Shown one piece after another: positions 53,296-59,982 of a stretch of DNA of 64,000 bases. The position numbers and the translations under genes were made by a program. The notes beneath the pieces were generated by a model, which was not told the DNA's origin, did not search any database, and worked only from the letters and a program-made list of their open reading frames with translations. Each line of letters begins with the position of its first letter. Position 1 is the stretch's first letter. Source of the DNA: Gammaproteobacteria bacterium (lineage in GTDB: Bacteria; Pseudomonadota; Gammaproteobacteria; Pseudomonadales; Porticoccaceae); the NCBI GenBank assembly GCA_018069465.1, contig JAGPUW010000016.1, positions 14,548-78,547 of the forward strand, in the 5' to 3' direction.

Positions 53296-54025
53296 TGCCT
53301 ATTTAGAAATGGCGGATACTGAAGCCCGTCATTGGTGGTTTACTGGTCGACGAGCCATACTGGCACATCTCATCGATACTTTTGATTTGCCCCCAAACGC
53401 AAGAATCCTAGAAATAGGTTCTGGCACTGGAGGGAATTTGCAAATGCTGTCCACTTTCGGACAAGTCAGCGCCCTGGAGATGGATGCCACTGCTCGTGAA
53501 ATAGCAATGAATAAAACAGGCAGGTGTTTTGATATACGTCCCGGTTTTTGCCCTACTGACATCCCTTTCGTCGGCGAGAAATTTGACTTGATTTGTCTTT
53601 TTGACGTGCTGGAACACATTGATGAGGATGTTGAAACACTCATAGCAGTGAAGGCGCTTCTGGCCGAAGGAGGTCGGGTTTTGGTAACTGTTCCTGCGTA
53701 TCGCTGGCTTTGGAGCGCTCACGATGTCTTTCTTCACCATAAGCGGCGTTATTCAAAGGCTGAGTTTAACCAAAAAATATTTACTTCAGGGCTGCATCCT
53801 GTGAAGATTTCACACTTCAATACTATTCTTTTTCCGCTTGCAGCCATTGTTCGAATGAAAGACAAGTTATTTGGTAACTCGTTAGCAAGCGGAAGTAGCA
53901 TCCCGCCGGCACCAATCAACCGTCTTTTTACAGCTATATTCAGAGGGGAGCGGTTGTTGCTATCAAAAATTAACCTCCCATTCGGAGTTTCGTTACTTGG
54001 TGTACTTCGTGCTGGGCACTTTTAA
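53285..54025 (+). CDS. Class I SAM-dependent methyltransferase
   Basis: ATG 53285 overlaps the GtrB-like stop by 11 nt. Contains HWWFTGRR, ILEIGSGTGGN and FDLICLFDVLEHIDED. Its stop lies 1 nt before the GtrA-like ATG. Confidence 0.75.
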   Translation: MNPDAYLEMADTEARHWWFTGRRAILAHLIDTFDLPPNARILEIGSGTGGNLQMLSTFGQVSALEMDATAREIAMNKTGRCFDIRPGFCPTDIPFVGEKFDLICLFDVLEHIDEDVETLIAVKALLAEGGRVLVTVPAYRWLWSAHDVFLHHKRRYSKAEFNQKIFTSGLHPVKISHFNTILFPLAAIVRMKDKLFGNSLASGSSIPPAPINRLFTAIFRGERLLLSKINLPFGVSLLGVLRAGHF

Positions 54026-54026
54026 T

Positions 54027-54404
54027 ATGGCCTCATCTAGACTCACAAGACAGGCCCAGCGATTTGCTCTCTCCGGTTTACTCGTAACGGGTATCCATGT
54101 ATTTTCAGCGTCGGGTCTTATTCTTCTGCTAGTTGTAGACCCTCCGATCGCCAATGGTCTGGCATTCGTAGTTGCAACTGTGTTTTCGTACACGATCAAT
54201 ACTCTGTGGAGCTTCTCCAGCCCTCTACACGGCAGAAACCTTATTCGTTTTATGGCGGTTTCAATGTTCGGTTGTTTTCTTGCCGTGAGTGTTGCTAGCG
54301 CTGCTCAACACTATGATTTGCACTATTTATACGGAATTGGGCTGGTTGCTTTAGTCGTTCCGCCAGCTACGTTTTTACTACATAGTTTTTGGACGTATAG
54401 ATGA
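54027..54404 (+). CDS. GtrA-family small membrane protein (putative lipid-linked sugar translocation component)
   Basis: 125 aa from ATG 54027 with four TM segments and GtrA-like motifs (RFALSGLLVTGIHV; FSYTINTLWSF). Confidence 0.75.
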   Translation: MASSRLTRQAQRFALSGLLVTGIHVFSASGLILLLVVDPPIANGLAFVVATVFSYTINTLWSFSSPLHGRNLIRFMAVSMFGCFLAVSVASAAQHYDLHYLYGIGLVALVVPPATFLLHSFWTYR

Positions 54405-54525
54405 TACATGTTGCTCTAGAAAGTATTTCACAAATACGTAAAAAAGAAATTTCTATACGACTAGTTTGGATCGAAAGAGGGTTTGGGTGGGCGCTTTTTT
54501 GGTCACTAAAGATTAGGGGTATTTC

Positions 54526-55371
54526 ATGTCAGTTGTAATAATTGGAGCAAGCGGCTATATCGGATCGTGCCTACTTGAGAAGGCACCTCTCGATTCCTGG
54601 GGTACGGCATCTAGTGGCCGTACCCCAGGCTTGATCGACTTTGATCTTGCGCATTCTGACGGGTTTCCGTGGCATCGATTATTTAAAGATGACGTTGTCG
54701 TTATGACTGCCGCTATCTCGTCGCCCGATATTTGTGCGCATGAGCATGCACGTGCCTGGGCTGTGAATGTAACGGGCACATCGGAATTCATCACTAATGT
54801 GATTGCGCGTGGAGGTCGCGTTATTTTTTTCTCCAGTGATGCCGCCTATGGTGAACACAGCGATATATTTGACGAAAATACAGTAAGTCATCCAGTTGGT
54901 GAATATGCTGTGATGAAGCATGAGGTTGAAAAACGATTTCAGGGTAATCCATCCTTTAAGAGCATCCGTCTCTCCTATGTTTTTTCGAAGGAAGATAAAT
55001 TCACTCAGTACCTAAATGGCTGTGCTTCAAGTGGTGAAGAGGCCGAGTTGTTCCACCCGTTCTATCGGGCAATCGTTCACCGTGACGATGTTATTGATGG
55101 AGCGCTCGCACTTGCCACGAGGTGGGACGAGTTCCCTCAGCAGATTATTAACTTTGGTGGTCCCGAGGTGCTTTCAAGAATTGACTTTGCTCAATGTTTG
55201 AAGAATGCTGCATTGCCTAATCTGCGATTTATTGTAAAGGATCCCGGGCCAGATTTTTTTAACAATCGACCGCGAGTTATTGCGATGTCGTCTGAGGTTT
55301 TGCCGAAGCTACTTGCTCGGCCTTCCCACACCTTGGCTGAAGCAGTAAAAATTGAGTTCTTATCAAAGTAG
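54526..55371 (+). CDS. Extended SDR, RmlD-like reductase; candidate GDP-6-deoxy-4-keto-heptose 4-reductase (DmhB/WcbJ-like)
   Basis: 281 aa with Rossmann motif IIGASGYIGS and catalytic YAVMK. The function is inferred from its position directly upstream of the 4,6-dehydratase and the heptose activation genes. Confidence 0.55.
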   Translation: MSVVIIGASGYIGSCLLEKAPLDSWGTASSGRTPGLIDFDLAHSDGFPWHRLFKDDVVVMTAAISSPDICAHEHARAWAVNVTGTSEFITNVIARGGRVIFFSSDAAYGEHSDIFDENTVSHPVGEYAVMKHEVEKRFQGNPSFKSIRLSYVFSKEDKFTQYLNGCASSGEEAELFHPFYRAIVHRDDVIDGALALATRWDEFPQQIINFGGPEVLSRIDFAQCLKNAALPNLRFIVKDPGPDFFNNRPRVIAMSSEVLPKLLARPSHTLAEAVKIEFLSK

Positions 55372-55410
55372 ATTTTACAGGGTATTGAGTTGTCATTTTA
55401 GAGGGAAAAG

Positions 55411-56442
55411 ATGAGAAAAAAATTATTGATAACGGGCATTACCGGTCAGGTGGGGTCTCAACTGGCAGATTATGTTTTAGAAAATACTGAATATGACGTT
55501 GTCGGGATGATGCGTTGGCAGGAGCCGATGGATAATCTGTATCACCTGGCGGGCAGGATTAATAGCAAGGATAGAATTAGTGTCTATTATGCAGACCTGA
55601 ATGATTCTGCGGCCATATCCCGAATGCTTCGGGATATAAAGCCGGAATTCATTTCCCACCTAGCTGCTCAGTCCTACCCTAAAACATCGTTCAATATTCC
55701 GATTGAAACTTTGCAGACCAATATTATTGGTACGGCAAATCTACTGGAGAATATTCGGCAACTAAAGGAAATCGACGGGTATGACCCCGTCGTGCACGTG
55801 TGTTCTTCTAGCGAAGTTTACGGCAAGGCGAAACCCGGTATGCCGCTGTCAGAAGATACTAACTTTCATGGGGCAAGTCCCTATAGTATAAGTAAAATTG
55901 GAGCGGACTATTTAGCCCAATTTTATGGGGAGGCCTATGGAATACGGACATTTATTACAAGAATGGGCACGCACTCCGGCCCCAGGCGGAGTGATGTTTT
56001 TTTTGAAAGCACTGTAGCTAAGCAGATTGCTTTGATTGAGGCTGGTCTGCAGGAGCCTTTTATTAAGGTTGGCAATTTATCAAGCACAAGAACTTTTCAG
56101 GATGCTAGAGACGCTGTCAGGGCATATTTTTTACTTCTCGAGGAAAGCGAGAAGGGGAATATAAAATGTGGTGACTATTTCAATATTGCTGGCGAAGAAG
56201 CCTTTAAATTACCTGAAGTGATTGAGCTTTTCTTAAGCATGAGTGCGCGGCAAGATATTAAGGTTGTTACGGATGAAGAAAGAATGCGTCCGATTGATGC
56301 TGACTATCAAATGTTTGATAACACCAAGATTCGCATGGCGATCGACTGGAAGCCTGAGATACCTGCCAGGCAAATGTTTAGCGACTTACTGAATCACTGG
56401 AGGGATGAAATTTCCAAAGGGAAGATACCTCTAAACAGGTGA
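55411..56442 (+). CDS. GDP-sugar 4,6-dehydratase, GDP-D-glycero-alpha-D-manno-heptose dehydratase type (DmhA/WcbK-like)
   Basis: 343 aa with LITGITGQVGSQLADYVLENT.YDV.GMMRWQEPMDN, HLAAQSYPKTSF, SSSEVYG, the YSISK catalytic motif and GTHSGPRRSDVFFES. This closely resembles the heptose-specific Gmd paralogues of Campylobacter, Burkholderia and Yersinia as I remember them. Confidence 0.7.
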   Translation: MRKKLLITGITGQVGSQLADYVLENTEYDVVGMMRWQEPMDNLYHLAGRINSKDRISVYYADLNDSAAISRMLRDIKPEFISHLAAQSYPKTSFNIPIETLQTNIIGTANLLENIRQLKEIDGYDPVVHVCSSSEVYGKAKPGMPLSEDTNFHGASPYSISKIGADYLAQFYGEAYGIRTFITRMGTHSGPRRSDVFFESTVAKQIALIEAGLQEPFIKVGNLSSTRTFQDARDAVRAYFLLLEESEKGNIKCGDYFNIAGEEAFKLPEVIELFLSMSARQDIKVVTDEERMRPIDADYQMFDNTKIRMAIDWKPEIPARQMFSDLLNHWRDEISKGKIPLNR

Positions 56443-56499
56443 CTGATTTGGCTCTTTGTCGAGTGGCGATCGCTACGAATAAATTTTGGAATATAAATA

Positions 56500-57528
56500 A
56501 TGATCATAAGAGCACGCGCACCCTTGCGCCTTGGCTTGGCCGGCGGCGGCACCGATGTTTCACCTTATTGCGACACGCACGGCGGCTATGTTCTCAATGC
56601 TACGATTGACCGTTACGCCTATGCCGTCATTAAAACCTTGGATGTACCGGAGGTGCGTTTCTTAGCCACCGATCAGCAGGTGGTCAAGGTTAAGCCGGTA
56701 GGTGAGCCTTATGCCCTGAACGGTAAGCTCGATCTGCACAAGGCGGTTTATAACCATATGGTGGAGCACTATAACGGCGGACAGCCCATTCCTTTGGAGC
56801 TGAGTACCTTTTGCGATGCACCGGCGGGGTCTGGCCTCGGGTCATCCTCTACCCTGGTGGTGGTGATGATTCGCGCGTTTGCGGAGTTACTGAATCTACC
56901 TCTTGATGACTACACGATTGCTCACCTGGCCTACAAACTTGAGCGTGTGGATTGTGGTTTGCTAGGAGGGCGGCAGGATCAGTATTCAGCTACTTTTGGC
57001 GGCTTCAATTTCATGGAGTTTTATGCCGATGAGCGCGCGGTGATTAATCCTTTACGTGTTAAGAACTGGATTATTTGCGAGTTGGAAGCTTCTTTGCTGC
57101 TGTTTTATACAGGTGTTTCGCGTGAGTCGGCCAAAATTATTGCTGACCAAAGTAGTAATGTGAAAACGGGCTTGGTCAATACTATGGATGCGATGCATGG
57201 TATTAAGCAAGAAGCACTTGTTATGAAGGAGTGCCTTTTAAGAGGCGATTTTGGTGGCATAGTTGATTCGATGCGCCAAGGCTGGGAAAGTAAAAAGCGC
57301 TCTGCTGAGACTGTATCTAACCCCCATATCGATTCTGTTTATGATGCGGCCATCAACTCTGGAGCATTGGCGGGCAAAGTGTCTGGTGCTGGTGGCGGTG
57401 GTTTTATGATGTTTTTTGTGCCCCCCGACAAGCGGATGGATGTGGTCAGAGCATTGAATTGCTTTGAGGGTCAAGTGAGTAACTGTCATTTCACCAAGCA
57501 TGGCACGCAGGCATGGAGAGTTGAATGA
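56500..57528 (+). CDS. hddA: GHMP-family D-glycero-alpha-D-manno-heptose 7-phosphate kinase (HddA/WcbL-like)
   Basis: 342 aa, [20 protein letters not shown], with GHMP motif [10 protein letters not shown] and C-terminal [11 protein letters not shown]. Overlaps gmhA (ATGA). Confidence 0.8.
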
Positions 57529-58109
57529 ATAGCTATATCACAGCACAAATAGCCGAAACCCAAAGGCTGATGACTGCCATGCTGGCAGATGCCTTGTTGC
57601 TGGCAAAGGTGGAGGCTGCGGCCCAGGCATGTATTGACTGTATGAAGGCTGGGGGCAAAATATTGTTGGCAGGGAATGGTGGCAGTGCCGCCGATGCACA
57701 GCATATTGCCGGTGAGTTTGTTAGCCGTTTTGCTTTTGACCGGCCAGGGCTACCTGCGGTTGCGTTGACAACCGACTCATCGATTCTTACTGCCATTGGT
57801 AATGACTATGGCTATGAAAAGCTGTTTGCCCGCCAGGTTCAGGCATTAGGTAATCAAGGCGATGTTTTTATCGGTTATTCAACTTCGGGTCGCTCGCCCA
57901 ATATACTTCTAGCACTCGAGGAGGCTCGATCATCTGGCCTGGTATGCATTGGCTTGACGGGTAATCGAGGAGGAGTGATAGGCGAATTGTGCGATTATTT
58001 GTTGGAAGTGCCGTCCAGTGATACGCCAAAAATTCAGGAGGGGCACCTGGTGCTGGGCCATACTTTGTGCGGCCTGGTTGAAAATCATATCTTTACACCT
58101 TCAGCATGA
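57525..58109 (+). CDS. gmhA: Sedoheptulose 7-phosphate isomerase GmhA (SIS)
   Basis: 194 aa with [37 protein letters not shown] and EGHLVLGH. Overlaps the next gene (ATGA). Confidence 0.85.
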
Positions 58110-58801
58110 AGGCGATTGTACTTGCCGGTGGATTTGGTACGCGACTTCGCGAACGAGTACCTGATTTACCTAAACCCATGGCTCCGGTGGCGGGCCGCCC
58201 TTTTCTGGAATATGTTCTCGACAAGTTGGTGTTAGGGGGCGTGAGTGAAATCATTCTTTCAGTGGGATATAAAGCCAATATCATTATTGAGCATTTCGGC
58301 GATGTTTATCGCAATGTTGCCGTTAGTTATGCAGTTGAGGAAGAGCCCTTGGGGACAGGTGGCGCAATTTTTCATGCGCTTAAAGGCCAGGGTGAGGAAG
58401 CTACTCTTGTACTGAATGGCGATACCTTTTTAGATGTTGACTATAGGGAGCTTATCCTTTGGTACGCTCAATCACCTACACAAGTCGCGATGGTGTTAAG
58501 GGAAGTGCCGGATGTGGCCCGTTATGGTTCTGTGCTGGTTTCAGGTGAACAGGTTTCTAGCTTTGTGGAGAAGGGCAAGGCTGGCTCTGGTTTGATAAAC
58601 GCGGGTGTTTATTTTATTAATCCAGGTGTTTTTGGAACTTACTCCCTCTCCGGGAAATTTGAATTGGAGGCTGATTTACTCCAAAGGCACTGTCGTACAT
58701 TAACCCCCCGAGCTTTTATCAGCGATACTTTTTTTATTGATATCGGCGTGCCGGATGATTACGACCGTGCTCAGCACGAACTTCCAGCTCTATTACGATA
58801 G
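58106..58801 (+). CDS. hddC: D-glycero-alpha-D-manno-heptose 1-phosphate guanylyltransferase (HddC/WcbM-like)
   Basis: 231 aa with nucleotidyltransferase motif [15 protein letters not shown]...PKPM, GTGGA, NGDTF and [11 protein letters not shown]. Confidence 0.8.
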
Positions 58802-58855
58802 ACGGGGTGTTGGAGTTAATGTTGGTTGAATTTCCTATTGAATAATAGTCATTTT

Positions 58856-58873
58856 GCGCATTTTCGAATGCGC
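58856..58873. terminator. Perfect 7-bp hairpin between convergent hddC and the GT2 gene (possible terminator)
   Basis: GCGCATTttcgAATGCGC, overlapping the GT2 stop codon by 1 nt. There is no clear U-run on either strand. Confidence 0.35.
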
Positions 58874-59889
58874 TACATCTTCCCCATGACAGCTGCAAAC
58901 ATCAGCCCTAATCCGCCGACTATTGTCTGGCGGTAAACACCAGATGCCAAAAGACGCGTAACCCTGGTTAGAATATTACCGCTGCGCGCCTTTCTAAAAG
59001 CATCAAGAATAGCCTTGTTTTCAGGAGTAAGGAGTTCACTTGCCTTTTGTAATGCTTCAATATTAATGTCATTCCATCTTTTAAAGCGCCCCTCCAGTAA
59101 CAGCTTGATACGTTTACTACTTGCTCGCCAACCGGGTGGGGCGCCCAATACATTTTGATCGTGTTGCCGGTATAAGACTCGCGGTTCAGTGTCGTATAGC
59201 ACAACGCCGCCCACGGCATTAACCATGATGTAGGCCCACCAGTCGTGACTTGCGATATTTACCAGGCCGATCTTGCAGAGAATATCGCGCGCGGCTTTAT
59301 TCATTACCATGGTGTTACCGCTTGCCAGGCTCTGCACTAATGCATTATTGAAGCTTGGCCGTCTTTTATATAATGGTGAGTAGCCTGTTTTATTATTGGC
59401 CTCATCGATTAGTCGTGTGCGGGCGCAATACAGTGTGGGGACATCAGCAGGTATTGCCTGTAATTGCGAAAGGGCTTGTGAAAGTTTGTCGGCTTGCCAA
59501 ATATCATCCTGATCGGCAAAGGCAAAAAAATCACCTTGTATATTTGGGTTACAGGTTAGCGACAGGAAGTTAGCGGCGAAGCCTTCTTGTGGGCCGCTGG
59601 TGATATGAAGTTTGTTTTCGCCCCACGCAGTGCGATAGGTATTGAGGATGTCCAGGGTTGAGTCTGTGGAGCCATCGTCAGAGGCCCATATCTTGAAGTT
59701 CTGGTGTTCCTGTTTATCAATTGAGTCTAATTGCTCTTTTAGAAAGCGAGCGCCGTTATAGGTGCATAACAGTATGGCGACGAGGGGCATGTCAGCAGGT
59801 TTTCCTGGGTTGATAAGGCTTGCGGTGTTAGCTTTTTGAGAGGTGTCTTTAGGTGCTTTATTACTGCTGTTAATGTCTGGCGCTGTCAT
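58873..59889 (-). CDS. GT2 family glycosyltransferase
   Basis: 338 aa with VAILLCTYNGARFL, ASDDGSTDST and FADQDDIW (DxD). It is the only island biosynthesis gene on the minus strand. Confidence 0.8.
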   Translation of the reverse strand: MTAPDINSSNKAPKDTSQKANTASLINPGKPADMPLVAILLCTYNGARFLKEQLDSIDKQEHQNFKIWASDDGSTDSTLDILNTYRTAWGENKLHITSGPQEGFAANFLSLTCNPNIQGDFFAFADQDDIWQADKLSQALSQLQAIPADVPTLYCARTRLIDEANNKTGYSPLYKRRPSFNNALVQSLASGNTMVMNKAARDILCKIGLVNIASHDWWAYIMVNAVGGVVLYDTEPRVLYRQHDQNVLGAPPGWRASSKRIKLLLEGRFKRWNDINIEALQKASELLTPENKAILDAFRKARSGNILTRVTRLLASGVYRQTIVGGLGLMFAAVMGKM

Positions 59890-59982
59890 TGATGGCTCGG
59901 ACTTCCATTTCGTTAGGGAGTAAATAGGGCCGCAGCAGGGATTGTACCTGATTTGATTTGAGCTGCTTTGCGAGGCCAGCGC

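Follow-up and report, generated by a model that had tools for sequence, protein, structure and literature searches.

A probable GDP-6-deoxy-alpha-D-manno-heptose cassette without its own gmhB in an O-polysaccharide island of a marine Porticoccaceae bacterium

How can a gene cluster serve the synthesis of a GDP-activated 6-deoxyheptose when it contains no gene for the heptose bisphosphate phosphatase, GmhB? This question is raised by a 64,000-nucleotide stretch of DNA (hereafter, the window) from a marine Porticoccaceae genome (GCA_018069465.1, contig JAGPUW010000016.1, positions 14,548 to 78,547). Five adjacent open reading frames (ORFs) on the plus strand at window positions 54526-58801 were confirmed to form a heptose cassette, dmhB-dmhA-hddA-gmhA-hddC, that lacks gmhB. 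Their coordinates are exactly those given in an earlier note made from the sequence alone, and the five gene assignments proposed there were upheld when the proteins were compared with family profiles and the sequences of solved structures and placed in a tree. ATGA stop/start overlaps were read at both the hddA/gmhA and gmhA/hddC junctions, as expected from the translational coupling that had been suggested for the last three genes. A scan of positions 53900-59950 detected fewer promoter-like sites than were found in shuffled sequences, and no convincing terminator was found after hddC in the same region. Taken together, the sequence comparisons described below make it very likely that the five genes constitute one operon-like cassette for the formation of GDP-6-deoxy-alpha-D-manno-heptose, with the phosphatase step supplied by the only GmhB of the cell.

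The dehydratase gave 589 bits and 78% identity against PDB 7US5, the solved Campylobacter jejuni enzyme, and at most 154 bits against Gmd and Rmd structures. On the gmd equivalog model it reached 169 bits, compared with a cut-off of 415 bits, and its identity to DmhA of Escherichia coli O52 was 76%. A maximum-likelihood tree placed it inside a tight clade with the C. jejuni and E. coli O52 DmhA proteins (support 97/92). A separate Gmd clade (support 100/100) included E. coli Gmd and the Gmd of this genome itself, which is encoded on contig 30 together with fcl and shares 26% identity with the window dehydratase. The earlier note had made its proposal depend on the dehydratase standing outside the ordinary GDP-mannose dehydratases; it was found in the DmhA/WcbK clade, with Gmd apart. 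In addition, the dehydratase gene adjoins hddA-gmhA-hddC, a linkage common to most of 70 related loci. These comparisons suggest that the enzyme would catalyze the C4,C6 dehydration of GDP-heptose. The alternative that it is an ordinary Gmd using GDP-mannose from the neighboring manC was ruled out by the bit scores and the tree; the genome has its canonical gmd and fcl genes side by side on contig 30. This 3.2-kb contig starts inside gmd and continues into fcl (positions 1-1731; locus L083), whose product matches GDP-L-fucose synthase at 499.6 bits against a 500-bit cut-off. Therefore, the genome also makes GDP-L-fucose.

Among the products of the three coupled genes, HddA matched characterized WcbL over its full length, scoring 600 bits with the structures 4USM/4USK; its score with 4N3O was 354 bits. 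For GmhA, the score was 317 bits with the solved phosphoheptose isomerases 2XBL/2X3Y, which we take to be Burkholderia pseudomallei GmhA, and 133 bits with DiaA. The best match of HddC was HddC rather than ManC, RmlA, or GlmU: it scored 214 bits on model NF049965 (132 bits on the next model) and 161 bits against its best solved relative, 6JQ8/5XHW, which is described as a "putative 6-deoxy-D-mannoheptose pathway protein" and is presumably Yersinia pseudotuberculosis HddC. It is 40% identical to HddC of E. coli O52, and many of its homologues carry the source name heptose 1-phosphate guanylyltransferase. The only other GmhA-like gene in the genome is located on contig 1 (94940-95398; locus L076, 1474-2070, minus strand), between yraN and a dolP/yraP-like gene, and scores poorly both ways (123 bits for GmhA and 107 bits for DiaA). 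The LPS (lipopolysaccharide)-core pathway either has an isomerase of its own, for which the contig 1 gene is a candidate, or borrows gmhA of the island.

The configuration of the product at C4 would be set by the reductase. In an alignment of 10 family members, G7, G10, and G13 (GxxGxxG), Ser103, and Y127xxxK131 are invariant. The family is large and well conserved (1853 clusters at E <= 0.001), and its members lie directly upstream of the dehydratase gene in 18 fetched loci. The window reductase differs in type from the GDP-fucose-synthase-like reductases of C. jejuni, and its best match among solved structures, none of them close, was an RmlD at 36 bits. It can be aligned over its full length with the protein encoded directly upstream of dmhA in E. 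coli O52 (32% identity, E 5e-50). The O antigen of that strain contains 6-deoxy-D-manno-heptose, and dmhAB, hddAC, and gmhAB have been assigned in its cluster, the roles of dmhA and dmhB being putative (PMC7685785). No RmlC-like C3/C5 epimerase was found in the island, as had been noted before; the genome has a sole PF00908 match, which lies on contig 28 close to a dTDP-glucose-dehydratase-like gene. Manno at C4 is therefore a reasonable inference rather than a proven result. It is rather unlikely, on the other hand, that hydride from the RmlD-like reductase attacks C4 from the opposite face, which would yield the C4 epimer, GDP-6-deoxy-D-talo-heptose. What speaks for the talo product is that the E. 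coli O52 protein, the sole reductase here linked to a known manno product, is only 32% identical, and that the solved structures are all distant from the window reductase. Moreover, homologous GDP-4-keto-6-deoxymannose reductases produce either D-rhamnose (Rmd) or 6-deoxy-D-talose (GTS). Because these homologues give different products, the stereochemistry at C4 is not set by the reductase family. However, the manno sugar is found in Y. pseudotuberculosis O:2a, E. coli O52, and the B. pseudomallei capsule, all of which have this reductase type beside DmhA, and the 39 invariant columns of the family alignment likewise argue against a change of face.

A gmhB gene was then sought with seven cassette GmhBs as tblastn queries against the window and the genome (3.6 Mb in 49 contigs, 97.6% complete). 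No GmhB-like sequence or remnant was detected in the window (best E = 0.6), and Pfam and NCBIfam scans revealed no HAD domain in any island ORF. A gmhB remnant or a hidden phosphatase in the island was rejected on these grounds, and the earlier observation that the cluster contains no heptose bisphosphate phosphatase holds. The place directly downstream of hddC is taken by a convergent family-2 glycosyltransferase (GT2) gene rather than by gmhB. The genome contains exactly one GmhB, a 185-amino acid protein encoded on contig 46 (67180-67734, minus strand) between glyS and a plsC-like acyltransferase gene. It scored 223 bits on NF006506 (cut-off, 178 bits), its closest solved relatives are the LPS-type GmhBs 4PNH and 3L8H, and a DxD motif (ILDRDG) and a CxH...CxC loop (CPHLPAAGCNC) were recognized by eye. 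It had been predicted that an LPS-core gmhB would be found elsewhere in the genome, and this gene matches that prediction. hldE is also present, with two near-equal matches to rfaE domain I, one on contig 24 (199695-200621, 414 bits) and the other on contig 49 (168-1091, 410 bits); the latter contig is 2.9 kb long, and the second match is either a true duplicate or the result of an assembly split. Orthologues of the contig 46 GmhB were present as a single copy in all 10 same-genus genomes searched (77-87% identity), whereas the heptose dehydratase was absent from all 10. Since these island-free genus mates all keep GmhB, the enzyme is a vertically inherited housekeeping protein, and the cassette arrived with the low-GC island. 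For the same reason, there was no sign that the contig 46 GmhB is specially adapted to the island.

The simplest reading is that this housekeeping GmhB would act on the alpha anomer. There is precedent for such sharing: the capsule heptose pathway of C. jejuni uses GmhB Cj1152, whose gene is in the LPS heptose cluster and outside the capsule cluster (PMC10680097), and GmhA and GmhB have been described as common to the ADP- and GDP-heptose routes (PMC4691232). Thus, the view that the phosphatase must come from elsewhere stands, but its absence from the cluster is no puzzle, because the arrangement has been published for C. jejuni. It is very improbable that an unrecognized enzyme, be it a further HAD hydrolase from elsewhere in the genome or an island protein lacking annotation, performs the step instead of the housekeeping GmhB. 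Three weak HAD-type matches elsewhere in the genome and a 652-amino acid island protein without a family assignment are conceivable sources of such an activity, and LPS synthesis was partly retained in a gmhB knockout of Helicobacter pylori, a sign that other activities can compensate (PMC8204981). Against this, a bona fide, intact GmhB is present in the genome, the C. jejuni pathway draws on the LPS enzyme, and the HAD fold is not detectable in the island.

Several points weigh against the assignment of the cassette and of its phosphatase. First, three of the proteins fall short of their equivalog cut-offs: HddA scored 407 bits on NF049969 (cut-off, 600 bits), GmhA narrowly missed them with 192 bits on TIGR00441 (209 bits) and 199 bits on NF010546 (276 bits), and HddC remained below the 300-bit cut-off of NF049965. 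Despite these missed NCBIfam cut-offs, the outcome of the comparison of HddA, GmhA, and HddC with solved structures is unambiguous. Second, the reductase has a low identity to the E. coli O52 protein, which is itself a putative DmhB (PMC7685785). Third, the genome is a draft, and a second gmhB may sit in a gap. Fourth, GmhBs prefer one anomer, and most cassettes of this reductase type retain their own GmhB; for these reasons, a housekeeping beta-type GmhB may substitute poorly. The alpha:beta preference of GmhBs lies between 6:1 and 1:150. E. coli GmhB, which prefers the beta anomer, nevertheless acts on the alpha-bisphosphate with a kcat of 3.5 per s and a kcat/KM of about 3e4 per M per s (PMC9798254), and the two anomers differ only about threefold for the H. 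pylori enzyme (PMC8204981). We consider it unlikely that, having lost the alpha-type gmhB dedicated to the cassette, the lineage now depends on a beta-type LPS GmhB with a relaxed anomer specificity or with a throttled flux into the O-polysaccharide. If this were true, it would be a case of natural pathway streamlining and could reveal the residues that set the anomer preference of GmhB, or an unrecognized alpha-bisphosphate phosphatase.

The 70 related loci, which were retrieved from species genomes with the dehydratase, show how unusual the layout without gmhB is. The gene order seen most often is reductase-dehydratase-hddA-gmhA-hddC-gmhB, which is also that of E. coli O52. Among the 46 loci with room after hddC, gmhB follows hddC directly in 28 and is missing from the locus in 18, the latter including those of Campylobacter and Helicobacter. 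When only the loci with this reductase type are counted, the corresponding numbers are 15 and 3 out of 18. The genome of Pseudomonas sp. NFXW11, which has a cassette without gmhB, encodes a single GmhB, compared with two in each of two genomes that carry six-gene cassettes.

DNA homology between the window and its nearest cassettes extends from inside the reductase gene only as far as position 58210, which is approximately 100 bp downstream of the hddC start. The end of the similarity at 58106-58210 is likely to be a recombination junction at which the hddC-gmhB end was replaced. In line with this, the window HddC is an outlier, with 46% identity to its cassette relatives compared with 61.5% among those relatives, while the other four cassette proteins are within the relatives' own identity spread. 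The window HddC belongs to another large HddC clade, the more distant members of which again precede a HAD phosphatase. A natural HddC-GmhB fusion (P0162, a 401-amino acid metagenome protein with NTP_transferase and Hydrolase_like domains) is also a member of this clade and is 68% identical to the window HddC. The closest HddC relative (87% identity) is encoded on a metagenome contig, L088. This contig and the window are collinear, with 83% nucleotide identity; it carries the same convergent 338-amino acid GT2 after hddC (79% amino acid identity) and has no gmhB. Because the window and L088 share this layout, the 3' end was remodelled once, and the form without gmhB has since been maintained with intact genes. 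The nearest relatives without gmhB (L019, L020, and L029) do not share the window type of hddC (43-49% identity); the losses of gmhB were therefore independent.

In view of this history, it might be asked whether the cassette is a decaying remnant in which the loss of gmhB inactivated the branch, so that the island glycan would contain no heptose. The absence of gmhB where 15 of 18 comparable cassettes carry it and the remodelled 3' end are compatible with decay. However, all five ORFs are intact with their catalytic motifs present, the gene overlaps are preserved, and the independent contig L088 has the same layout with intact ORFs (87-92% protein identity). A decaying cassette is thus extremely unlikely. 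A functional cassette that descends from a six-gene ancestor is the preferred explanation: the ancestor would have carried gmhB after hddC, and the phosphatase gene would have been lost when the 3' end was remodelled here, leaving a divergent hddC and the convergent GT2 gene.

In the pathway proposed from the predicted enzyme activities, sedoheptulose 7-phosphate would be isomerized by GmhA, and the product would be phosphorylated at C1 by HddA to give the alpha-1,7-bisphosphate. The 7-phosphate would be removed by the vertically inherited LPS-core GmhB encoded on contig 46, after which HddC would add GMP. The dehydratase would then form the 4-keto-6-deoxy intermediate, and the RmlD-like reductase would reduce it at C4.

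The cassette can be compared with four known systems. The first five genes of the E. coli O52 heptose cluster are in the same order as in the window, and that cluster shares ABC-transporter-dependent export (wzm/wzt) and methyltransferase genes with the island (PMC7685785). It differs in having a dedicated gmhB after hddC and other glycosyltransferases, and in that O52 also makes dTDP-D-fucofuranose. The capsule cluster of C. jejuni (hddC, gmhA, hddA, and DdahA/WcbK) resembles the cassette in its closely related dehydratase and in the absence of gmhB. On the other hand, its C4 reductases are GDP-fucose-synthase-like and are often accompanied by RmlC-like C3/C5 epimerases, leading to altro, ido, and gluco heptoses, whereas in the window the reductase is RmlD-like and an epimerase is absent. 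The capsule cluster of B. pseudomallei (wcbJ-wcbK-wcbL-gmhA-wcbM-wcbN) encodes the proteins closest to the window HddA (WcbL) and GmhA among the structures compared, and we take the order of its heptose genes to be identical to that of the window cassette. Its product is a homopolymeric 6-deoxy-manno-heptan. In contrast to the window, this cluster keeps its own GmhB, WcbN, which has been used as such (PMC4691232). It also specifies a group 3 capsule and not an O-polysaccharide of the Wzt-CBM type. As for Y. pseudotuberculosis O:2a, the closest solved relative of the window HddC is presumably the HddC of this organism. The O unit is made there by the Wzx/Wzy route. Its DmhA and DmhB perform the same two steps, C4,C6 dehydration and then C4 reduction, without epimerases (PMC7949155).

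The cassette lies in a horizontally acquired, low-GC island of the ABC-transporter-dependent O-polysaccharide type, with a GC content of 45-50% compared with 57-58% in the flanks. On its left are wzm, wzt with a Wzt_C domain, methyltransferase genes, a GtrB/GtrA-like module, and a gene for a 1362-amino acid multi-domain glycosyltransferase/methyltransferase. On its right, the convergent GT2 gene is followed by toxin-antitoxin genes and manC. UvrA encoded in the window falls into clusters, at 90% identity or more, with proteins of Candidatus Reddybacter and of other marine Gammaproteobacteria, in agreement with a placement in Porticoccaceae (Cellvibrionales). The features of the cassette and the adjoining GT2 gene are listed in Table 1.

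Table 1. Genes of the heptose cassette and the adjoining convergent gene, in window coordinates
Predicted product	Length (amino acids)	Position	Strand	Remarks
DmhB/WcbJ-type C4 reductase, RmlD-like short-chain dehydrogenase	281	54526..55371	+	RmlD_sub_bind and Epimerase domains
Heptose-type GDP-sugar 4,6-dehydratase (DmhA/WcbK clade)	343	55411..56442	+	GDP_Man_Dehyd domain, 241 bits
HddA, GHMP kinase	342	56500..57528	+	Best NCBIfam model HddA NF049969, 407 bits
GmhA, sedoheptulose 7-phosphate isomerase	194	57525..58109	+	SIS_2 domain; start overlaps hddA stop
HddC, heptose 1-phosphate guanylyltransferase, nucleotidyltransferase	231	58106..58801	+	Best model HddC NF049965
Family-2 glycosyltransferase, convergent	338	58873..59889	-	Glycos_transf_2 domain; at the gmhB place of relatives

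The distribution of the dehydratase clade is wide and sporadic. At E <= 1e-100, the clade was represented in none of 30 relatives. At the same threshold, 7 of the 399 other gammaproteobacterial genomes sampled gave matches, all with 49-54% identity and none with 70% or more. These seven dehydratases (G180, G252, G102, G304, G359, G393, and G193) fall between the DmhA clade (>=70%) and Gmd (~26%). Members of the clade itself occur in no fewer than 70 species genomes, the majority of them from environmental organisms, with carriers such as Gallionella, Nitrosomonas, Limnohabitans, Pseudomonas, Dechloromonas, Ferrimonas, Synechococcus, an archaeal metagenome-assembled genome (MAG), Campylobacter, and Helicobacter, as well as E. 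coli O52. The earlier statement that the 6-deoxyheptose pathway is rare outside a few named pathogens was therefore overstated, although its occurrence is indeed sporadic. Dechloromonas sp. ARDL1 carries dehydratase-hddA-gmhA-hddC-gmhB twice, once on the chromosome (L023, NZ_CP168939.1) and once on a 66-kb plasmid (L031, NZ_CP168940.1), and the two dehydratases are 82-83% identical to that of the window. The presence of chromosomal and plasmid copies in one strain is direct evidence for mobility of the cassette. The archaeal locus (L053, PCAW01000016.1, a Methanobacteriota archaeon MAG) contains hddA, hddC, a DmhB-type reductase (42% identity), and a dehydratase (76%), and represents either inter-domain transfer or a binning error.

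With these results, a marine Porticoccaceae bacterium joins the organisms that carry the GDP-6-deoxyheptose pathway. The finding is genuine but unremarkable: the pathway and its arrangement were both known and the host is new, with the loss of the cassette's own gmhB as a mild twist. As a rule, the cassette comprises six genes with gmhB as the last, and the versions without gmhB would rely on the LPS GmhB. Horizontal transfer has distributed the tight DmhA clade sporadically over environmental Proteobacteria, a cyanobacterium, and an archaeal MAG. While existing knowledge of the pathway is unchanged, the comparison of cassettes is useful for the annotation of O-antigen clusters and the prediction of their sugar composition.

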